From positions 672,001-736,000 of the forward strand of contig OY970359.1 of the NCBI GenBank assembly GCA_963718665.1: DNA of 64,000 nt, read 5' to 3'. Under the pieces are notes generated by a model. The model saw only the letters and a program-made list of their open reading frames with translations, ran no database searches and was not told where the DNA came from. This stretch comes from an uncultured Phycisphaerales bacterium (GTDB lineage Bacteria > Planctomycetota > Phycisphaerae > Sedimentisphaerales > Anaerobacaceae). Numbering within the stretch: the stretch's first letter is position 1; each line of letters opens with the position of its first letter. Position numbers and translations under genes: made by a program. Shown piece after piece: positions 1 through 56,543 of this stretch.

Positions 1-719
1 CAGATTGGGAAAGGATGCTTGTCCCGAAAAAAGATGTATTATTAGAATTGGCCAAAGAGGCAAAAGAACAATTTGGAGTACTTTGCAGACGCAGTATCAA
101 AGATATTGAAACAGAAGCCAAACGACAAGACCGCGTAGAATTTGAGGCGAAAGTTTTGGAAGGGTTAGGACTATCAGGAAAATTTTCAAGTGATATTTTG
201 GCAGCGGTAGTCGATCTTGTCGAGGAGCGACATTTACTGCCGAAGATGCGGACAGTGAAGAAAAAGAAACGAATCGAGCATGATTTGGAGAAGTTGAAGG
301 AGGAGGTTACGGAGGAAATATTGCCGAGCGGAGTGAAGAGATTTCCCAATGCATTTGTTAAAGCAGGCTCAAAGACGGAATGGGAAGAGATAGGGATAGG
401 GGCAGAGAGGATAAAATTAGGTGAGAGGGGAATAGGGGTGCAGGAGATATGCGACGCAGAGGAGAATCATTTGATGGAGGTGCGGTCGATTGAGAAGGCC
501 AAGTATATAGTGTATGGGAAGCAAAAAGATGAACAGATAGTAAAGGTGCCGGATAGCGCAATAGTAATAAAGAAGGCGGTAAAAGATTATGAGATTTACG
601 CACGCCAGATAAAAGAGGAATTATACAGGGCGTTTATGGAGAAGTGCGGCGACCATCCGCTTTCAGAAAATCTAACGATGCAGGTTCTTGAGGAATATGG
701 TTTACCGGATGCGAGGTGA
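1..719 (+). CDS. Partial CDS, open at window start; resembles the C-terminal region of a type IIG / N-6 DNA methylase restriction-modification enzyme
   Basis: Frame is open from the window edge. Segment DRVEFEAKVLEGLGL...ILAAVVDLVEER resembles RM enzyme tails, and a Bro-N gene follows. No methyltransferase motifs are inside the window. Confidence 0.4.
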   Translation, partial: DWERMLVPKKDVLLELAKEAKEQFGVLCRRSIKDIETEAKRQDRVEFEAKVLEGLGLSGKFSSDILAAVVDLVEERHLLPKMRTVKKKKRIEHDLEKLKEEVTEEILPSGVKRFPNAFVKAGSKTEWEEIGIGAERIKLGERGIGVQEICDAEENHLMEVRSIEKAKYIVYGKQKDEQIVKVPDSAIVIKKAVKDYEIYARQIKEELYRAFMEKCGDHPLSENLTMQVLEEYGLPDAR

Positions 720-756
720 GAGGTTTCTCAAGTATGTTTTTCGTAGTCGATAAGGG

Positions 757-957
757 GCGATAGTAGAAGGCAAGAAATAGCGTACAGCGTACAGCGGACA
801 GCGTGTAGTTGAAGATGGAACTTGAGGTGTCCGAAAAAATCGGACAACTGAAATCGCGATAGTAGAAGGCAGTGATAAGACAGAGGACGGAGGGCAGAGG
901 GCGAAAGAAGGAATCGTCCGGCGTTAAGTTGTCCATACTTTGTGTACAACTGAAAAT
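757..957 (+). repeat. Two ~100-bp tandem units: 16-bp direct repeat + heptamer run + palindromic Bro-N-like cassette
   Basis: GCGATAGTAGAAGGCA at 757-772 and 856-871; AGCGTAC-type and AGAGGAC-type heptamers; cassettes at 824-853 and 926-955 both end in ACAACTGAAA. Confidence 0.8.
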
Positions 958-977
958 AAAGGTGGTAGTTAAGAGGG

Positions 978-1826
978 ATGAACCGTATGGAAACGACAAA
1001 AATAGCCATTTTCAGAGGCAAACAGATAAGAAAAACCATTCATAAGGACGAATGGTGGTTCTCGGTTGTTGATGTGTGTGAGGCATTGACTGAAAGCCCT
1101 GATGCCGGAGCGTATTGGAGAAAGTTAAAACAAAGACTAAAAGAAGAAGGAAGTGAAGTCGTGACATTTTGTCACGGGTTGAAATTGGAAGCGCCGGACG
1201 GTAAAATGCGTGATACTGATTGCGCTGACACGGAAGGCGTATTCCGCATTATCCAGTCAATTCCCAGCCCCAAAGCGGAACCCTTCAAACGCTGGCTGGC
1301 AAAAGTCGGCTATGAACGCATCCAGGAAATTGAAGACCCTGAACTTGGAACAAAGAGAACTCGCGCACTATACAAGGCCAAGGGGTATCCCGACGGCTGG
1401 ATAGAGAAGCGTATGCGAGGCATTGCCATCCGCGAGGAATTGACGGAGGAATGGAAAGAACGGGGCGTAAAAGAGGAACCGGAATACGCCATCCTCACCG
1501 CGGAAATCTCGAAGGCAACGTTCGGACTGACGCCTTCACAATATAAACGGCTTAAAGGATTGAAACGCGAAAATCTGCGCGACCATTTCAACGACCTTGA
1601 GCTGATATTCAATATGTTAGGTGAGGCAGCAACAACGGAAATAACGAGGAATAAAGACGCGCAGGGATTTTTGGAGAACAAGGAGACAGCCCGCGAAGGA
1701 GGCGAGGTGGCGGGCAAAGCCAGAAAGGACCTGGAGTCGCGGACAGGCAGGAGAGTAGTATCCCGTAAGAATTATCTGGAGGGACCTCCGGACAGAAAGG
1801 CATTGCCGGAGAAGAACAACCGATGA
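978..1826 (+). CDS. Bro-N domain-containing protein (phage antirepressor-like)
   Basis: IRKTIHKDEWWFSVVDV...YWRKLKQRL...DGKMRDTDCAD...IIQSIPSPKAEPFKRWLA is typical of this family. Start may be 987. Confidence 0.88.
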   Translation: MNRMETTKIAIFRGKQIRKTIHKDEWWFSVVDVCEALTESPDAGAYWRKLKQRLKEEGSEVVTFCHGLKLEAPDGKMRDTDCADTEGVFRIIQSIPSPKAEPFKRWLAKVGYERIQEIEDPELGTKRTRALYKAKGYPDGWIEKRMRGIAIREELTEEWKERGVKEEPEYAILTAEISKATFGLTPSQYKRLKGLKRENLRDHFNDLELIFNMLGEAATTEITRNKDAQGFLENKETAREGGEVAGKARKDLESRTGRRVVSRKNYLEGPPDRKALPEKNNR

Positions 1827-1939
1827 GCGAGGTTGTTTCGGTCATTTCTGGTATGACCCTGATGTTTGGCGACAAGAGTTAAATCCGTCTGTTTATTTCG
1901 TGGTTGAGATTCTAAAAAAGAGCCGGTATCCTGTCAGCA

Positions 1940-2640
1940 ATGAATAACGATGTCGCATTAGGCCTTGCGTGGTACGTGGTATTCGTCCTGTCGCTGAGCT
2001 TTCACGAGGCGGCGCATGCGTTTGCGGCGATGAAACTCGGCGACAAGACCGCGTATTACGGCGGACAGGTCAGCTTGCATCCGTTTGCACACATGAGGAG
2101 AGAACCCATCGGGATGATTGTGCTGCCGATTATATCGTATATTTTAAACGGCTGGATGATTGGATGGGCGAGCGCGCCTTATGACACCGCCTGGCGCAGC
2201 GCCATCCGAAACGCGAGATAATGATGGCGATGGCGGGACCTGCGGCAAATCTTATTCTTGCTATCGCCGGCGTGGTGATAATCCGAGTGGGATACGCGAT
2301 GGGTTATTTTTCTCCGCCGGCAAGCATCACGTTTTCGCATATAGCTGACGTGGAGAGTGCGGGCTGGGCGAACAGCATAGCGGTAATGACGAGCATACTT
2401 TTTACGCTCAACTTAGTGTTGTTTATTTTTAACCTGTTACCTATACCGCCATTGGACGGAAGCTGCCTTGTGCCTCTGGTTTTGGACAGTGAAAACGCTT
2501 ATAAATACAAAGCCCTTATCAGTCAGCCATCCGTCGCGATTATCGGATTGGTAATCGCGTGGCAGGTTTTCGGTTATATATTTGCCCCGATTCACCTCTT
2601 CGCGATTAATCTTCTCTACGCCGGCCATCACTACGGTTAG
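1940..2640 (+). CDS. Site-2 protease (M50) family protein, split by a 1-nt frameshift near 2192
   Basis: HEAAH in ORF 1940-2221; AGPAAN and NLLPIPPLDG in ORF 2221-2640. Adding one G gives W-A-Q-R-H-P-K-R-E-I-M. Confidence 0.85.
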
Positions 2641-2715
2641 GCACAAAAGACATTTCTGATTTATGATTTTCGATTGATGATTTTGGGATGCGGATTTCGG
2701 AAGAACAGGACAGGG

Positions 2716-3789
2716 TTACTGTTTTGCGTTTTCGTCGGCTTCGGCGGCGGGGATGCCGAATTTTCCCATAAGGCGATTGAGCTGGCGGCGATCGATGCCG
2801 AGAATTCTTGCGGCGGCGATTTTTCGGCCTTTGGTGTATTCGATGGTCTGGGTAATGACCCTGCGTTTTACTTCATCGAGGGTCGGCAACTGGTCTTTTG
2901 GATAAGAAGGCGAATCAGCTATTATGATTTCGAAAGGCATTACGGCGGGCTGAATTTCGGGGCCCTCAGTGAGGACGTAAGCACGCTCGATGGCGTTGGC
3001 GAGTTCGCGGACATTGCCGGGCCAGGCGTAGCTAATCAGGAGGCGTCTGACGGATTCACTGAATGTCTTGGGCGGCTCGTTGTAGAAGGCCGACTGGTTT
3101 TTGAGGAAGTATTCGGCCAAATCGAGGATGTCTTCTTTGCGATGACGAAGTGGAGGCACCTCAAGCTGAACAACATTGAGGCGGTAATAGAGGTCTGAAC
3201 GGAACGTGCCCTTTTTGACCATATCCTGCAGGTCCTTGCAGGTCGCGCACAGGACGCGGGCATCGACGGGATACGACATAGCGGAGCCGAGGGGCGTTAC
3301 ACGTCGTTCCTGGAGGACGCGGAGGAGCTTTGCCTGAAGCTCGAGGGGAATTTCGCTTATTTCGTCGAGGAAAATCGTGCCGCCATCTGCCGCCCTGAAG
3401 AAACCGAGCGTGCTGTCAACGGCGCTTGTGAATGCGCCTTTGACGTGGCCGAATAACTGGCTTTCGAATAACTGGCCTGTAAGGGTGGTGCAATCGACGG
3501 GAACAAAAACGCGGTGGGCGCGACTGCCTGAGACGTGAATTTGGCAGGCGACCATTTCCTTGCCGACGCCTGTTTCGCCGGTAATAATAACCGGACATTC
3601 GCGGGTGGCAATAGCCCTGATAACTTCCATTACGGAGTTGAACGCGGCGGAACTGCCGAGAAAATGATTATGCGTGCGAGTATAAAATGACTGCGCAGAC
3701 GCAGAATCCTGCTGTCCGTGCTTGCCGCTTCCATTCTGAAAGCTCAGCTCTTTTGCGCCAGGAGGCACCTTGCGCGAACTATCACCCAT
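2716..3789 (-). CDS. Sigma-54-dependent transcriptional activator (AAA+ and Fis HTH, no receiver domain)
   Basis: GETGVGKE, ESQLFGHVKGAFTSA, FLDEI, FRSDLYYRLNV, WPGNVREL, C-terminal AARILGI. Confidence 0.92.
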   Translation of the reverse strand: MGDSSRKVPPGAKELSFQNGSGKHGQQDSASAQSFYTRTHNHFLGSSAAFNSVMEVIRAIATRECPVIITGETGVGKEMVACQIHVSGSRAHRVFVPVDCTTLTGQLFESQLFGHVKGAFTSAVDSTLGFFRAADGGTIFLDEISEIPLELQAKLLRVLQERRVTPLGSAMSYPVDARVLCATCKDLQDMVKKGTFRSDLYYRLNVVQLEVPPLRHRKEDILDLAEYFLKNQSAFYNEPPKTFSESVRRLLISYAWPGNVRELANAIERAYVLTEGPEIQPAVMPFEIIIADSPSYPKDQLPTLDEVKRRVITQTIEYTKGRKIAAARILGIDRRQLNRLMGKFGIPAAEADENAKQ

Positions 3790-38498: not shown

Positions 38499-38598
38499 GC
38501 CGGGATATTTGACGCGAAAAAAACTGATTTGAAATGCACCCTCAGGATTAACACCCAAGCCGGGATTGGGCAACTAAGTCCTATAAAATCTTTTGTGC

Positions 38599-38765
38599 TT
38601 GAAAATTCTGCGGGAAAATGATAGAAGAACGGAGCGGAGGAGTGGAAGTGAAATTTCACTCCCAGCTGCGACTCCCAGCACCTGTTTTGTAAACTGGGTA
38701 TCATTCGCCTACAGGCGATTTTGTCACCAAAACAGGTTCGGGCTATGCTCAGTCGAGTCGCAATC
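38599..38765 (+). promoter_or_regulatory. Putative promoter and structured 5' leader of the coiled-coil gene
   Basis: TTGAAA-17 nt-TAGAAG; nested helices TGCGACTC/GAGTCGCA, ACCTGTTTTG/CAAAACAGGT, TCGCC/GGCGA. Confidence 0.45.
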
Positions 38766-38802
38766 AGAATGGAAACTGATACAGAAGTTTTTTGGGCTGA
38801 CA

Positions 38803-41800
38803 ATGGACGTTGACAGGACAAGGGAAAAAGGGGGCTCCAACCCACAGGATGGTCAGGAGAAATTTGTCCCGACCTGCCCGATATGCGGAGACAAACACTG
38901 GCCGCATCATCCCCTTGCGCCATGCTTCAACGCCAAAAAAGTAAAAGAAAGAGCCAAGGCAGAAGCAGTAGCAAAGGCGCTCGCTGAAAAACAGGCGAGG
39001 ATTGATGCCAAACTTCAGGCAAAAGAGCAGGCCCGCGCGGAAAAACTCGCAAAAATCGAAGCTAAGGAGCAGGAAAAAGCCGATAAGCAGGCGTATTACG
39101 AAGCGATAAAAAAAGCGGATGAAATTGCCAATAACGAGGCGCAGGCAAGAGCCGAGGCACAGAGAATCGCCAAGGCGGAAACCAGGGCAAGAATCGTCGC
39201 AGAGGAAAAGGCGAGGACTGAAACCGAGGCCAGAATAAAGACCGAACAACAGACGAGAATCAAGCTCGAAGAAAAGACCCGCGATTTTCAGGAATCCCAG
39301 CGACAGCTCGAAGGGAGATTGCAGGCCGAATTATCGAACAAGGCCCAGTTGCAAAAGCAGATTGACGAATACCACCTGCTGATTAGCGAACTTCGGGAAA
39401 ACCTCGAGGCACAAACAAAAGCCCGCGGTATCGCAGAACAACAGTTTTACGCCGAATCGCAGGCCAGAAAACAAACCGAATCGGATTTGCACGAAAAGGC
39501 ACAAACCTTCGGCAAAGCGATAGAGGATATCCAGGCAAAATTGAACGCCCAGACGCAGTCGCTCCAGGATACGGAAGACAAGCTCAAACAATACGTCGGG
39601 AACCTGATTCAGACAGAAACCCGGCTGCGAGAAGAACAGCAAGCCCGGCGCGAAGCGGAAGAAAAATCAGAAAGGGAATCGCAGGCGAGAGCCATTGCCG
39701 AGGAGCAGGCAAAGCAACAGGGCGAACAGAGAATCAAAGCCGAGACCCGGGCCGAACAGGCCGAACACCAGATACAAATAGAAACACAGGAGAAAATCAG
39801 GGCCGAACAGCAGGCAAGAGCCGAATTAGAACAAAAAGCGACCGCATACGGGCAGGCAATCGCCTCAGCCGAAGAAAAAATACGTCAATACGCCGAATCG
39901 CTCGCCGAGGCAAGGCAGCAGACCGAGGCACAAACCGAAGAAGCCGGAAAATACCAACAACAACTAAACAGTCAGGCGGAAAAATCGGCCGCACTGGAAG
40001 CGAAATTCAAACAGGATATTGAAAAGCTGCAGGCACAATTAAACGAGACAAAACAGCAAATCATCCTCGAAACCAATGTCGCGCAGGACGCCGAAGACCG
40101 GCTAAAGGCGGAAATTGAAGCCAGGTTGAAAGCGGAAGAAAAAACTCAAAACGAGGCACTACAAAGAGCAAGAGCAGAGGCCCTTGCTGAAGCACAATCA
40201 AAAGAAACAGCACAGGCGCAATTAAGGGTCGAGGAACAGGCCCAAAAATGGCAGCAGGTCGAGCAGCAGATAAGGACTGAGCTTGAAGAAAAAGCGACAA
40301 GATACGGTCAGGCGATAGCGAAAGCCGAAGAAAAAACCAGGGCAATCGCTGAGTCATTTAAATCAGCACAGGATCGCCTGAAAGAGGAGACAGACCAGCG
40401 AAACCAAATCGAGGAAACACTGCGCAGTTACCAAAAAACGTTAGCCGACGCGCAGAACCAGTTAAACATAGAGGAACAAACAAGGGCGCAGACAGAGGAA
40501 CAGCTTGTCGCCGAACGCAAAGTTACGGCACAATTGCAGGAGCAGTTGTCGGCTTACGCTGAGCGTCTCAACCAGATAGAGCGAGACCTCAATAGCGAAG
40601 CCACGGGCAAAGCAAAAGCCCAGGAACAGCTCAAGACGATTCTCGAAGAAAGACAACAGCTCGAAGAAAAGGCGCAACTGGAAGCAATGGAAAGGGTCAG
40701 GGCACAGGCGATTGCGCAATCGCAGACCGAGGCGAGAGAAAAAGCGGAAAAGCAATTACGCAATTACGCCGGGCAGCTTGACGAGCTTAAGAGAAACCTT
40801 GAAACACAGGCCGCCGTTATGGCACAACTGCAAACAAACCTCGCAAACGAGACACAGCTAAAAATGGAATCGCAGACCCTTGCACAAAAACACGCCGAAG
40901 AAAAGGCACGAGCGGAAGCAATCGCGCAGGCCGAAACACAGGCGCGAGCCGAAACAGAGCAAAGGGCCAAAGAAACAATTGAGTCAGCAGAACGAAAAGC
41001 CAGAGAAGCAATCGAATCGGCAGAACAAAGGACCAAAGAGGCAATTGAATCAGCGGAGCAGACAAGACAGCAAACCAAAATCGAACTTCAGGAACAAATG
41101 AAAAGCTTCACCACAACACTGGCGAATATACAGGAACAGTTAAACCGCCAAATCGAAACTCGGGTCGCGGCGGAGCAGCAGATAAGAACGCTTGCCGCGA
41201 CAATCGAGGAATTAAAAGAACAGATATCCTCACAATCGCAGAACAGGGCCAAAGTAGAACGAAGCGTTAAAGACCTCGGCGACGCGCTTGCCGAAGCCCG
41301 TAGAAAACTCGATGCCGAAAGCCAGGCAAGAAACCGGGCAGAAGAACAACTCGAAGCCGAGGCAGCAACAAGGACAGATGCCGAAGAGAGATTGACCGGT
41401 TTGGCGGCCCAACTTGCTAAAGCCCAGGGCAGAGCAGAAGCCGAAGAAAAAGCGAGACGGTTGTCGGAGGAAAAAGCCCGCGTCGAAATCGAGGCAAAAG
41501 CGAAAGCCGAACAGCAGTCGCGCGCACAACTGGAAGAAAAAGCGAGAGTTTACGGCGAGGCAATAGCCACCGCACAGGAAAAAGCAAGGTATTACGCCGA
41601 AGCCCTTACCGAAGCGAAAAATAAGCTCGCCGAACGGGAAAAATCAACCGAAGACATTCGCAATCGGCTCAACAGTGAACTCCAGATACATCAGAAGCTC
41701 GAAGAGCAGGTCGAGCTTTATCGCCGGCAGATAGCGCAGGCCGAGGCACAGGCCAAAACACAGGCCTCGGAATTAACCGGCATCGAAAAACAACTGCGAA

Positions 41801-42651
41801 CCCAGTTGACCAGCCAGACAAAAGTTTACGAGGAACGAATCACCCAGCTCGAAGAAACGATTGTTGCGGAGACAGACGAAAAAGAAAAACTCCGCCGGCA
41901 ATACGAAACCGAATCCGAAGCCAAAAATGCCGCCGAACAGCAGTTGCAGCAAAAAACCGAGGCATACGAGCGGGTAATCGAAGCCGCGGAAGAACATCTA
42001 AAAAGCGAATCACAAAAGGTCTCGCAAATCGAGGCACAGTTGACGGCCTTGCAGCAGGCAAAAGCGGAAGCCGAACGCAAACTCGAAGCGGAAACCGAAT
42101 ACAGAATATCCGCACAGGAAAATCTCAGGACATACGCCGACCGATTAGCCGAGCTTGAAAAACATCAGGCGAATCTTGCCTCCACAAACGGCGAAACGCT
42201 GAAAAAAATCGTCGCCGAGACGCAGGCAAAAGAGCAAATGCAAAAGCAAATCGAGCTGCTGACCGCCGAGATAACAAAAACCGAACAACAATTGCGCGAG
42301 GAACGTCAGGCAAGAACAGAACTGGAGCAAAAACTCAAAGCCCAGATTGACGCCCGATTAAAAGCCGAAGAACAGGCCAGGATAGAATCTCAGAAACGCG
42401 CCGAAATCGAGGAAGAGCTTAGCATCCAGAAGGAATTAACGGCCCAGGCCAACGCCGAGGCCGGCGTGCAGGAAGAGGCAAACGCACAGCAGAGAAAAAC
42501 ACTGCCCTTCGATATCCGCGAGATACCCGCCCCGGAAAAGACACAGCCCTGCGACTGCTGTGGCCGAAACGACCTTATGCCGAGCGAGCTGCACAAAATT
42601 GATTCCGGCCACCTCTTCTGCCCCGACTGCTTCGCTGCTCTAAAAAGATAA
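38803..42651 (+). CDS. Very long coiled-coil protein (~1280 aa) with N- and C-terminal Cys/His zinc-finger-like motifs
   Basis: E/Q/A/K/R-rich rod; CPICGDKHWPHHPLAPC near the N-terminus, CDCCGR...HLFCPDC at the C-terminus; start taken at MDVDR. Confidence 0.85.
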   Translation: MDVDRTREKGGSNPQDGQEKFVPTCPICGDKHWPHHPLAPCFNAKKVKERAKAEAVAKALAEKQARIDAKLQAKEQARAEKLAKIEAKEQEKADKQAYYEAIKKADEIANNEAQARAEAQRIAKAETRARIVAEEKARTETEARIKTEQQTRIKLEEKTRDFQESQRQLEGRLQAELSNKAQLQKQIDEYHLLISELRENLEAQTKARGIAEQQFYAESQARKQTESDLHEKAQTFGKAIEDIQAKLNAQTQSLQDTEDKLKQYVGNLIQTETRLREEQQARREAEEKSERESQARAIAEEQAKQQGEQRIKAETRAEQAEHQIQIETQEKIRAEQQARAELEQKATAYGQAIASAEEKIRQYAESLAEARQQTEAQTEEAGKYQQQLNSQAEKSAALEAKFKQDIEKLQAQLNETKQQIILETNVAQDAEDRLKAEIEARLKAEEKTQNEALQRARAEALAEAQSKETAQAQLRVEEQAQKWQQVEQQIRTELEEKATRYGQAIAKAEEKTRAIAESFKSAQDRLKEETDQRNQIEETLRSYQKTLADAQNQLNIEEQTRAQTEEQLVAERKVTAQLQEQLSAYAERLNQIERDLNSEATGKAKAQEQLKTILEERQQLEEKAQLEAMERVRAQAIAQSQTEAREKAEKQLRNYAGQLDELKRNLETQAAVMAQLQTNLANETQLKMESQTLAQKHAEEKARAEAIAQAETQARAETEQRAKETIESAERKAREAIESAEQRTKEAIESAEQTRQQTKIELQEQMKSFTTTLANIQEQLNRQIETRVAAEQQIRTLAATIEELKEQISSQSQNRAKVERSVKDLGDALAEARRKLDAESQARNRAEEQLEAEAATRTDAEERLTGLAAQLAKAQGRAEAEEKARRLSEEKARVEIEAKAKAEQQSRAQLEEKARVYGEAIATAQEKARYYAEALTEAKNKLAEREKSTEDIRNRLNSELQIHQKLEEQVELYRRQIAQAEAQAKTQASELTGIEKQLRTQLTSQTKVYEERITQLEETIVAETDEKEKLRRQYETESEAKNAAEQQLQQKTEAYERVIEAAEEHLKSESQKVSQIEAQLTALQQAKAEAERKLEAETEYRISAQENLRTYADRLAELEKHQANLASTNGETLKKIVAETQAKEQMQKQIELLTAEITKTEQQLREERQARTELEQKLKAQIDARLKAEEQARIESQKRAEIEEELSIQKELTAQANAEAGVQEEANAQQRKTLPFDIREIPAPEKTQPCDCCGRNDLMPSELHKIDSGHLFCPDCFAALKR

Positions 42652-54269: not shown

Positions 54270-56543
54270 GTGAGGATGGGCAATATGCCGGAACAAAATC
54301 CGGACAATTCCGCCGGCCGCAGGGTCGAGCTTGCGGTGGGTCAGTGTGAATCAATCTCAATTCTGCCCTCGGTGGCGTCGCGGTTTCTGACGCAGCTTGG
54401 CAGGATGGAGCTTACCCCAGGGTCGCTGGCAGAGCTTGTGGAATCCGACCCGGCGATTACGGCGTTGATACTGCGATTCTGCCACAACAAGGGAATCGTA
54501 ATCAAACAATGCGATACGTGGCTTTTGCAGGTAATGGAAAACATATCACTGCGGGAGATTCGGGACGCGGTTTTGTCGGCAGAGGTTTTCGGGGGATTGT
54601 CGGACGACGGGGGGAGCGATTTCAGGAAAGAATTGACCCGTCATTCATTAGCGTCGGCCTGCTGCGCCAAACAATTAGCGAAACTTGTATCGCCTGCAAT
54701 TGACGGTGATACCGCTTACTTAGCAGGTTTGCTGCACGATATAGGCAAATTCCTGCTCGATGAAGTGATGCCGAAAAGTTTCGATACGCTGCTTGAACAG
54801 GCGAAGACAGGCAAAACGAGTTTTTGCCAGGTCGAGCAGGCCAATTTCGGTATTGACCATACGATATTAGCCAAGCGATTCGCGCAGAGTATTCGTCTGC
54901 CGAGCGATATTATATTGGGGGTTTGGCTGCATCACAGTCACGCGGGGGCGATACCGCGGATGCCGCAGGCGAGGATAGCCGGAATTGTGGAGGTTGCGGA
55001 TATTATCGTTCGCGGGGCGGGTATCGGCGAATCGGGCAATTACGAGGAGCAGCTCTCGGCTGAAGTAATTGCGGGGACATTGGGGCTAACAGCCGAACAG
55101 GTGAAACAGGTTGAGCAACAGCTGCCCGATCTGGTCCAGCAAAAAAGCGAAGCGGTGGGGCTGAACATCCTGAAGCCGGGGTGGGCATATTGCGACGCAT
55201 TGCGAACCACGGCGGGACAATTAGCTTCCGACAGCTCGAAATTATTCGAGGAAAGCTCACGGCTGCAAAGCAGCGCGAGTTATTTCGATTTTATAAAAGA
55301 GCTGACACCAAAAATCAACTCATCCATGCCTGCGATCGAGCTGGCGAAAAATTACGCATTAGTATGGCAGAATTTTTATCATACAGGACCTGTGTGTGTT
55401 TATCTTACCGACCAGCTCGAAGAAGGCATCGTCGAAGGGGTAGTTGCTGAGAACCAAGCAAGCGCAAAAACAATTTTGCTTGAAGTGCCCGGCGACGCGG
55501 AATTAATCCCGCAGCCGATGAGTGAAAAATTTGTAGTATTGGACGCTGAAGATAATATCGATTGGCTGTTCGAGCAGTGCGACGTCAAGTTCGACCTGAG
55601 CCGGACCAAGATTGCCCCACTTCAGGCAGATGAACGAACTGTTGGAATAATCATATTCGAGCTTCGCCACCCAGCGGGAGGCGATATCGCTGAACGATTC
55701 GGGCCTGCGGCGAGATTTGGGGGCACAATCCTCGATATGCTGGAGACAATCGGCAGCCAGCAATGGTATGCGGAACGGTTTGCGCAAGCGATGGGAAGCC
55801 AGCGTTCAGCGGACAGCGTTCAGCGGACAGCGTTCAGCGGGCAGCGTACAGCGGACAGGGAACTGAAAACAGAAAACGGTTCGGAGGCGATGGTGGAAAT
55901 GGCGGCGGGAGCAGCACACGAATTGAATAATCCGCTGTCGGTTATTTCGGGACGGGCACAGTTATTAGCCAAAAGCGAAAACGACCCAGACAGAAAACGC
56001 ATCTTAGAGCAGATTCAGCAAAACGCGGGCGAACTTTCGGCGATTATCGACGACCTGATGAGCTACGCAAACCCGGAACAGCCGAGGGCAACCGAAACAG
56101 CCGTGGGACAAATAATCAATGACGCGATTGATTTGACAAAACAGAAAAAGCAAATGAATCAACTCGATATCAAAATTGATATTACGACTGATACGCCGGT
56201 GGTTTTTGTTGACTCGGCGCAGATTGCCTGCGCGATATCAAACATTCTCTGCAATGGTCTTGAGGCATATCCGTCTCAAGCGGGTCCGATTGTAATAGAG
56301 GTTACAGCCGACAAAACAAATAATACTGTGAGTATGCAGGTGATTGACTCAGGCGGGGGTATGGATGAGCAGACGCTTGCCAAAGCGACGCATCCGTTCT
56401 TTTCGGCAAGGCCTGCGGGCAGGAAACGCGGAATGGGCCTTGCACATGCGCAACGGCTGATAGAGATTAACCACGGAAAACTTTCATTAGCGAGCCAGCC
56501 GGATAAAGGAACGACGGCTACTGTGACGCTACCCAGCGTATAG
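54270..56543 (+). CDS. HDOD-domain sensor histidine kinase
   Basis: ESDPAITALIL, AGLLHDIGK, DHT, HH; AHELNNPL, NILCNG, DSGGGM, PFFS, GMGLA. Confidence 0.92.
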   Translation: MRMGNMPEQNPDNSAGRRVELAVGQCESISILPSVASRFLTQLGRMELTPGSLAELVESDPAITALILRFCHNKGIVIKQCDTWLLQVMENISLREIRDAVLSAEVFGGLSDDGGSDFRKELTRHSLASACCAKQLAKLVSPAIDGDTAYLAGLLHDIGKFLLDEVMPKSFDTLLEQAKTGKTSFCQVEQANFGIDHTILAKRFAQSIRLPSDIILGVWLHHSHAGAIPRMPQARIAGIVEVADIIVRGAGIGESGNYEEQLSAEVIAGTLGLTAEQVKQVEQQLPDLVQQKSEAVGLNILKPGWAYCDALRTTAGQLASDSSKLFEESSRLQSSASYFDFIKELTPKINSSMPAIELAKNYALVWQNFYHTGPVCVYLTDQLEEGIVEGVVAENQASAKTILLEVPGDAELIPQPMSEKFVVLDAEDNIDWLFEQCDVKFDLSRTKIAPLQADERTVGIIIFELRHPAGGDIAERFGPAARFGGTILDMLETIGSQQWYAERFAQAMGSQRSADSVQRTAFSGQRTADRELKTENGSEAMVEMAAGAAHELNNPLSVISGRAQLLAKSENDPDRKRILEQIQQNAGELSAIIDDLMSYANPEQPRATETAVGQIINDAIDLTKQKKQMNQLDIKIDITTDTPVVFVDSAQIACAISNILCNGLEAYPSQAGPIVIEVTADKTNNTVSMQVIDSGGGMDEQTLAKATHPFFSARPAGRKRGMGLAHAQRLIEINHGKLSLASQPDKGTTATVTLPSV
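55800..55862 (+). repeat. In-frame heptamer tandem repeat (CAGCGNN)x9
   Basis: cagcgtt cagcgga cagcgtt cagcgga cagcgtt cagcggg cagcgta cagcgga cagggaa. Confidence 0.85.

Follow-up and report, generated by a model that had tools for sequence, protein, structure and literature searches.

Why should a protein-coding sequence contain a DNA palindrome, and why should the non-coding DNA just upstream hold two further palindromic segments of similar design? These questions are raised by a Bro-N gene near the start of a 64,000-nt stretch of DNA, referred to here as the window (C1:672001-736000 of the 2.61-Mb genome G000), for which the closest named loci with a Bro-N homologue belong to the Phycisphaerae. 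The segments sit between a 1165-aa type IIG restriction-methylase gene and the 282-aa Bro-N gene, the third copy lying within the latter. The original prediction, made from sequence alone, read the upstream segments either as a store of exchangeable variants for a DNA-contacting part of the protein or as scars or operators left by related genes. The principal features are as follows.

1..719 (whole gene C1:669222-672719), + strand: 3' end of the type IIG restriction-methylase gene, 1165 aa (open reading frame; PADLOC REase_MTase_IIG, E 3e-83)
978..1826, + strand: Bro-N gene encoding protein P0001, 282 aa, winged helix plus helical C-terminal domain (Pfam PF02498, E 2e-14; PDC-S13, E 3e-125; structural model, pLDDT 84)
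1156..1180, + strand: in-gene palindrome, the putative operator, centre 1168, ±12 (pairing, homologue comparison and residue-base code)

All three 30-nt segments (824-853, 926-955 and 1155-1184) translate as had been claimed, with palindromes centred on the middle base of codon 5 (positions 837, 939 and 1168), while the flank preceding the first is one base out of register with the gene. Pairing occurs at ±3..9 in the first upstream copy (cassette 1), at ±2, 4, 5 and 7-12 in the second (cassette 2), and at ±2..8 in the gene.

P0001 scores 54.4 bits against PF02498 (curated cut-off 25.6), and Bro-N is its sole Pfam domain at E <= 0.001, with no Rha-family domain at that level. The PADLOC match to PDC-S13 spans residues 4-272, and the DinD model NF008573 falls below its curated cut-off (21.2 versus 242 bits), matching residues 152-251 only. 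The family comprises at least 8000 proteins at E <= 1e-30.

Homologues preserve the palindrome through sequence change

To determine how general the in-gene palindrome is, we assembled 104 distinct genes from the best 80 of 553 loci in a species collection and 30 loci from relatives, leaving out 5 duplicates and genes that do not cover the region. Across this set, palindromic pairing along the gene peaks at codon 64, with 7.54 of 9 pairs formed (next best position 5.24; median 3.6), and every homologue exceeds its own synonymous-recoding null (104/104; 7.67 versus 4.82 pairs). The ten-codon segment occurs in 44 peptide variants. Thus, the prediction that these codons would be hypervariable yet palindromic was borne out for both properties, except that the variability is not peculiar to them: at the protein level, residues 41-79 are about as variable. 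In 26 hand-picked variants, 92% of cells are paired, as against 28-39% in slid controls; 10 of the 11 pairs change on both sides, and pairing reaches ±12. These comparisons establish both the palindrome and its covariation.

The peptides encoded by the upstream copies were likewise expected to occur in intact genes, and they do. VSEKIGQL, from cassette 1, is present in 11 of the 104 homologues, and a cassette 2-like peptide, LSTLCVQLK, is present in P0090, where the arms are one base from those of cassette 2. Within the G000 genome there is no further copy of either in-gene site at up to one mismatch, so no regulon is visible. An internal promoter overlapping the palindrome (1179-1207) was considered as a separate candidate and rejected, its -10 element being unconserved in homologues.

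Palindrome bases track specific residues of the helix and wing

We then asked whether the palindrome varies together with the protein that surrounds it. In the structural model, the palindrome encodes a short helix and the first strand of a wing (hairpin 66-83), and it lies between a helix formed by residues 43-56 and residue 78. The helix is basic and varies in step with the palindrome. Two further features are needed here.

1104..1121, + strand: codons 43-48, start of helix 43-56, residues tracking the inner palindrome (class comparison and model)
1209..1211, + strand: codon 78 (Arg), in the wing, tracking palindrome bases -11/+11 (residue-base tables)

Palindrome classes sort with the start of the helix: GAYWRK accompanies CGTGACA, RKYWNK accompanies GGTGACA, xVYWRV accompanies CGTTACA and RNYWKV accompanies GGTTACA, with RDYW/GTCGACA, RKYWxD/GTCCGA and RRYWxD/GTACGA as additional classes. 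The outer arms follow the wing. Among the 80 genes of the protein-found set that are not of W type, a wing Arg goes with A(-11)/T(+11) in 47/47 and a wing Tyr with G/C in 32/33; classes of W type (Ile46) are mostly absent from these tables, 24 of 104 genes having been dropped here and 15 of 180 from the pooled set described below.

The code was tested out of sample with sites picked by DNA pattern alone. In 119 metagenome loci chosen for C(+11), the wing residue is Tyr in 81/81 of those whose 3' part is intact (80 called by pattern and 1 by eye), and the helix reads RK..D in 88/90 of those with an intact 5' part. Conversely, 22 virus loci chosen for T(+11) yielded a wing Arg in 5/5 distinct intact genes, and the wing rule is kept in 7/7 further, more distant virus genes. 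When all sets were pooled, giving 165 Trp46 genes of the 180 extracted, the wing rule holds in 165/165 (Arg with A/T, 58/58; Tyr with G/C, 107/107), although roughly half of these genes were retrieved with a single pattern in which the inner arms and +11 are fixed, so that the counts are not independent trials. In the same pool, Arg43 goes with G(-8)/C(+8) in 125/126 and Gly, Gln, Pro or Ala43 with C/G in 31/33; Asn43 departs from both rules (6/6), and Val48 goes with a single core (11/11). Most combinations of the three determinants occur. One truncated gene, L264, combines a wing Arg with G/C and thus breaks the wing rule; it had been dropped by the intactness rule.

Base -11 is a third codon position that lies 52 bases from codon 78 and outside the inner palindrome. 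The codons concerned are GAA, CAA or AAA with Arg and GAG or CAG with Tyr, while GAA/GAG use elsewhere is alike in the two groups. On a tree built from codons 9-59, wing type is close to random, with 23 changes against 25.5 after shuffling, and -11, which adjoins codon 59, nevertheless follows it. Bases +14..+37 partly predict wing type (66/80), and old linkage combined with selection for symmetry could mimic part of the code.

In sum, the letters of the palindrome follow particular residues in a near-perfect and, we consider, established code, the inner arms following the helix to their left and the outer arms the wing to their right, which suggests that the protein likely binds its own gene. 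Helix and wing residues that track inner and outer bases, silent ones included, are what would be expected of a dimer on its operator. The idea that one stretch serves both as coding sequence and as predicted binding site is among the best-supported readings of the locus.

The predicted fold resembles DdrC

The best fold match to the P0001 model is the DdrC dimer of Deinococcus radiodurans (PDB 8u0g, 7udi, 7qvb; Foldseek E 6e-8; Z 13.3, rmsd 14.1, 213 residues aligned). The likeness extends over both domains, winged helix and C-terminal helical bundle, and holds for the N-terminal domain on its own (Z 8.5, rmsd 3.8, 95 aligned). The two proteins are only 11-15% identical, and the DdrC winged helix is acidic, in contrast to the basic helix 43-56 of P0001. 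DdrC is reported to bind breaks and ends, and its negatively charged winged helix is thought not to bind DNA (PMC9303277; PMC11347143). A shared fold thus does not give function.

Subsequent matches are to Dachshund/Ski and, weakly, to the KilA-N/APSES proteins Mbp1 and PCG2 (Z 4.8 and 4.1, 83-85 aligned). Work on PCG2 describes a helix in the DNA major groove with the wing in the minor groove (PMC4333399), both elements being used on DNA (PMC4862756). These fungal factors differ, however, in having a fixed site in target promoters, and the low Z scores indicate a shared arrangement only. A sequence search of the PDB with an 81-sequence profile returned no matches at E <= 1, and no solved Bro-N-DNA structure was found there. 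On the model, P0001 is best read as a DdrC-shaped winged-helix protein and a candidate DNA binder.

Helix, palindrome and wing are exchanged as one block

If class and helix vary together, how do alleles change? Palindrome class changes 45 times on a tree of the C-terminal part (minimum 6; shuffled, 60) and 31 times on a tree of codons 9-44. Identity within 17 close pairs of unlike class falls to 0.43-0.63 over codons 28-82 and stands at 0.83-0.88 past codon 100, while in 16 same-class pairs it stays at 0.80-0.90. These profiles establish an exchanged block.

1059..1241, + strand: exchanged specificity block with boundaries near codons 28 and 88 (sliding-identity profiles of close pairs)

Since this block is what differs between close alleles, the exchange unit holds helix, palindrome and wing. 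The window gene is itself closest to a gene of another family (L083) over codons 28-89, and to genes of the same genus or family beyond. The proposed store of exchangeable 30-nt cassettes fares poorly against these data. Allele differences span ~180 nt rather than 30 nt, which leaves the donor-cassette idea unsupported; each palindrome class has its own helix, so a 30-nt swap would mismatch helix and palindrome; and the block in the window gene is nearest to that other-family gene, not to the copies upstream of it.

The upstream units are mosaics of identifiable pieces

We next traced each part of the leader to its source.

757..780, + strand: first 16-mer, the last codons (AIVEG..stop) of another type IIG-like restriction-modification (RM) gene (aligns, heptamers included, with the end of an intact 1022-aa gene upstream of a homologue in L002/L139)
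781..808, + strand: heptamer run 1, of CGTACAG type, dispersed (recurs at numerous unrelated sites of the genome and the family; follows the RM tail in L002)
811..854, + strand: SEKIGQ-class allele scrap with orphan palindrome 825-849, centre 837 (0 mismatches to in-gene copies, e.g. L089)
850..871, + strand: second RM-gene tail (EIAIVEG), with the second 16-mer (21/22 nt identical to the RM-gene end in L002)
879..899, + strand: heptamer run 2 (GACAGAG type), a different dispersed repeat (matches at unrelated places)
900..958, + strand: ESSGV-flank allele scrap with orphan palindrome 927-951, centre 939, LSTLCVQ class, decayed (matches an intact G049 gene at 88% across 59 nt)
953..977, + strand: probable type III methylase gene tail, by likeness, plus spacer before the start (methylase ends directly before a homologue in L083 and L016; leader versions in L317 and L249)

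The two upstream units are therefore mosaics, each combining the tail of an RM gene with a run of dispersed heptamers and a fragment of another allele centred on the putative operator. The origin of the leader pieces is established, the tail at 953..977 being probable only. The AIVEG tail also stands directly before a homologue in L032, and the cassette 1 scrap and the RM tail that follows it share 5 nt (850-854), where the two are joined. The units had been described as ~100 bp long, each beginning with one 16-mer and continuing with heptamers; the 16-mer is exact at both starts, but the heptamers differ and the units are not copies of each other. The 16-mer has exactly 2 copies in the genome (757 and 856) and one copy with 1 mismatch at C1:2255359. 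We rejected it as a cassette or recombinase signal, given that it is the end of RM genes, and rejected the heptamers as a Bro-N-specific feature, given that they are dispersed repeats.

Cassette 1 is undecayed. The arms of cassette 2 have 1/22 mismatches to the LSTLCVQ class and 4/22 to LSTLCRQ; its leader recurs in G002, G074 and G540, there before genes of three different classes, and decay in cassette 2 and its orthologues, symmetry-breaking changes included, proceeds roughly as fast as in the flank. Two classes separated by three base differences occur in one shared leader. An alternative assignment of cassette 2, to a decayed symmetric LYTxCVQ class, was discarded after 18 virus matches, none of them in a Bro-N gene; a virus scan for the LSTxCVQ core found 1 locus, without a usable gene. 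In contigs assembled from public runs, one spans 500-1420 and another run's spans 692-938, both identical to the window, which backs the assembled leader, although the run that gave the longer contig may itself be the source of the assembly.

Heptamer-run families are dispersed in the genome and the family, often right after stop codons, with further runs at window 2653-2700 and 55800-55858 and in L322, where the frame 3' of the run encodes what we take to be a four-helix-bundle-like protein. Our literature search found no description of such runs.

Orphan palindromes recur in relatives

Similar upstream copies were expected beside homologues, and a search of their leaders did find them, albeit rarely. 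In the protein-found set they precede 6 of 98 genes (10 copies, 10/10 unlike the gene's own class), and in metagenome loci 4 of 45 genes (5 copies, 2 of the gene's own class); of the downstream control stretches, 2/99 contain a copy. Whole 5' halves that end just after the palindrome lie directly before an intact gene in L091, L092, L204 and L249, and the L249 leader is found in L168 and L009 with the palindrome alone remaining. The SEKIGQ site was located 120 times, in 79 cases within an intact gene, in 38 as a broken copy and in 3 at the edge of a contig. Most breaks fall close to one end of the palindrome: 23/33 of the 3' breaks are in codons 68-73 and 23/26 of the 5' breaks within 8 codons upstream, subject to approximate edges and to a bias of the exact-match search towards young scraps. 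A pattern search of 401 genomes of the class gave 5 with a match, too few to count orphans.

Some loci hold compact arrays of palindromes of different classes. L237, 559 nt in all, holds one with ~8 classes, and others occur at ~875-960 in L224 and ~900-950 in L200 and L209, the last two sharing a common palindrome pair at 33-nt spacing. In L290, three stacked palindromes (640-725) lie in a gap between coding sequences, close to a transposase-like frame and a pair resembling a toxin-antitoxin system; this locus lies in G509, a complete 32.6-kb virus record that has no match to P0001. In L287, an unrelated virus frame of 106 aa begins with two different palindrome scraps (~700-750), both read in frame.

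A model for self-binding alleles and their scars

Taken together, we favour, as somewhat more probable than not, a reading in which codons 60-68 spell out a 25-bp palindrome to which their own product, a Bro-N/DdrC-like protein, likely binds as a predicted dimer; the ~180-nt block of helix, palindrome and wing is what distinguishes one allele from another; and the upstream cassettes are scraps of other alleles, likely the scars of replacements at an RM-linked site. Helix residues 43, 44, 47 and 48 would read bases ±2..8, and wing residue 78 would read ±11. An operator inside the gene may cause self-repression by blocked elongation, possibly damping the genes behind. Homologues are frequently found inside a host operon (between mod and res, cas4 and cas1, or mlaE and mlaF), and since they ride inside the operons of others, an in-gene operator would give self-repression that is independent of the promoter, as would suit a promoterless passenger gene.

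A new specificity would allow an incoming allele to escape its residents, and helix and site would have to move together, presumably by homologous recombination in the conserved flanks. Occasionally an allele may arrive with its own upstream DNA (RM-gene tail and heptamer spacer), with a short shared sequence immediately 3' of the resident's palindrome serving as the point of joining. The 5' half left behind could then erode to an operator-sized scrap, and the window leader would record two such events. That the upstream motifs are scars of related genes, one of the options first proposed, ranks among the best-supported readings. It draws on the traced leader pieces, on the relatives whose whole 5' halves would preserve earlier stages, on the clustering of breaks, on the 10/10 protein-found copies unlike the gene's own class and on the flank-like decay of cassette 2. 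The scar model leaves unaccounted for the scrap ends at both palindrome edges, dense arrays such as L237, the three-base class switch in the shared leader and the 2 of 5 metagenome copies that are of the gene's own class.

These loose ends keep alive a second account, which shares the self-operator but holds that the upstream palindromes are retained as working sites for other alleles, through cross-repression or as decoys. Roles of this kind have been proposed for arrays of Roi sites in phage satellites. The account is helped by orphans often lying 25-60 nt before the next start, by the tight different-class arrays of L237, L224, L200, L209 and L290, by the last of these belonging to a virus without a P0001 match, and by the undecayed state of cassette 1 and the scraps that end at both edges. 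We nevertheless judge it unlikely: G000 contains only two P0001 matches, neither of the SEKIGQ or the LSTLCVQ class; the changes in cassette 2 and its orthologues break symmetry at about the flank rate; and 92/98 homologues have no upstream copy.

More improbable still is that the palindrome matters as a hairpin or cruciform, whether as a recombination or copying signal or as a template-switch hot spot, its link to residues being old linkage. The high pairing with changes on both sides, the junctions at palindrome edges and the partial link of +14..+37 to the wing would all suit this explanation, as would an excess of G-T over A-C mismatches on the coding strand (23 versus 6). However, 20 of the 23 G-T mismatches fall at a single position, ±9, and ±8 has 5 A-C against 1 G-T. 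Mismatches persist at ±2, ±9 and ±10, so symmetry is not perfected, and ±11 shows no G-T intermediate in 62 distinct cores. Repair towards symmetry could go either way, yet -11/+11 match the wing in every pooled gene, and the separate tracking of inner arms with the left-hand helix and outer arms with the right-hand wing also counts against a purely structural role. An Rfam search of 1-3000 gave no match at gathering level.

Silent 30-nt donor cassettes, copied into the gene to alter its DNA-contacting segment, are very improbable: the occurrence of both cassette types in intact genes, the 45 class changes and a shared leader whose two classes might reflect an operator-sized conversion are set against the discrepancy between a ~180-nt block and scraps of 44-59 nt, a near-absence of helix/palindrome mismatch in intact genes, the other-family match of the window's block, the scarcity of upstream copies and the lack of any swapped form or swap joint in 4 runs, searched as assembled contigs, which drop rare forms.

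Relation to known systems

Our literature search, to which most subscription papers were inaccessible, found no account of a coding palindrome or a self-operator in any Bro-N gene. The nearest parallel is Roi of coliphage HK022, a Rha-type regulator that reportedly, in work ascribed to Clerget and Boccard in 1996, binds a site inside its own gene. Both would be phage-type DNA-binding proteins with an internal site, binding being suggested here by the code. P0001 differs in matching Bro-N rather than Rha in Pfam, and its predicted site is written into the stretch that encodes the DNA-binding domain, exists in numerous allelic classes and obeys a residue-base code. The locus is best read as a case of intragenic autoregulation with a readable code, for which this analysis worked out the three-position code, with its out-of-sample tests, and the make-up of the units.

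Silent-cassette gene conversion, as in pilE/pilS and vlsE, places variant pieces beside an expressed gene. Here, by contrast, a donor role for the scraps is unsupported, they fail to cover the varying tract, and the array is not conserved beside the expressed gene. In lambdoid immunity regions, specificity moves as a block with its site; the difference is that the predicted repressor and operator would here be the same DNA. Controller (C) proteins such as those of PvuII and Esp1396I are small helix-turn-helix regulators that travel with RM genes and have palindromic sites near their own gene; they differ in fold and size, with operators at promoters, outside their own coding sequence.

P0001 shares its candidate defence status with PDC-S13, which it matches almost end to end, and it follows a type IIG gene. 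The criterion for a phage defence candidate (PDC) was a position embedded within defence operons (Payne et al., bioRxiv 10.1101/2024.01.29.577857); the main text names neither PDC-S13 nor Bro-N and gives no function or palindrome. Among homologue loci, the nearest long frame is an RM or cas gene in 13/51 (E <= 1e-12), a minimum figure given that it derives from 260-aa pieces.

If the favoured reading is true, every gene names its own binding site, and thousands of protein-site pairs would be readable from sequence, providing data from which to learn recognition codes and a set of orthogonal repressor-operator pairs. Bro-N proteins would gain a DNA target, in a family that would until now have lacked a known function or site; a silent constraint on protein sequence would be explained; a 'Deinococcus-only' repair fold would be linked to a widespread family; and a control point would be placed inside RM and CRISPR operons. 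A bolder and rather doubtful extension is that of a very large family of mobile passenger genes in which one DNA stretch is both the code of the DNA-binding domain and its operator, yielding a natural, legible protein-DNA recognition code with swappable specificity blocks. Leaders and viruses would collect rival operators as memory or decoy arrays, and the DdrC-like C-terminal part could couple operator release to DNA breaks, tuning downstream restriction or cas genes.

Genomic setting and further observations

The type IIG gene and the Bro-N gene, the only two long frames, form a ~5-kb island that ends near window position 1881. It is missing from the same-genus genome G006, which has 25 unrelated nt at the site between flanks 89-95% identical. 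By eye against G006, the island ends show no direct repeat. Integron cassettes are marked by attC hairpins with extrahelical bases and conserved core ends, together with an integron integrase; for comparison, the Rfam search of 1-3000 gave no match at gathering level and the 25-bp site has no bulges. The only structured-RNA signal from Rfam was a sub-threshold mir-196 match elsewhere.

Beyond the window, homologues lie within CRISPR operons in L011, L021, L036, L049, L058 and L060, adjoining cas4, cas6e, cas7 or cas1, and in L009/L090 between an MlaE-like permease and its ATPase, 3' of a heptamer-like run and an orphan palindrome. The G000 paralogue (C1:2064545-2065420, - strand, 49% identity) has an RKYWNK helix and a Tyr wing and obeys the code; an orphan palindrome of another class lies ~55 nt 5' of its start.

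Just past the island, an M50 peptidase gene (window 1940-2640) is split into two frames where G006 and G013 have a single frame. Further along, at 38593-42651, a 1352-aa frame rich in Glu, Gln and Ala, with Cys/His motifs at both ends, underlies a strong A-over-T skew at 38-42 kb and is probably a coiled coil.

A second scar cluster is found elsewhere in G000, before a Fic-like frame (C1:2254150-2255450, - strand). It comprises the RM-gene end also present at window 680-756, the 1-mismatch 16-mer, both heptamer types and a near-palindromic scrap, presumably DinD-like from its appearance, and a WGQIATPL palindrome scrap lies 3' of the Fic-like gene.
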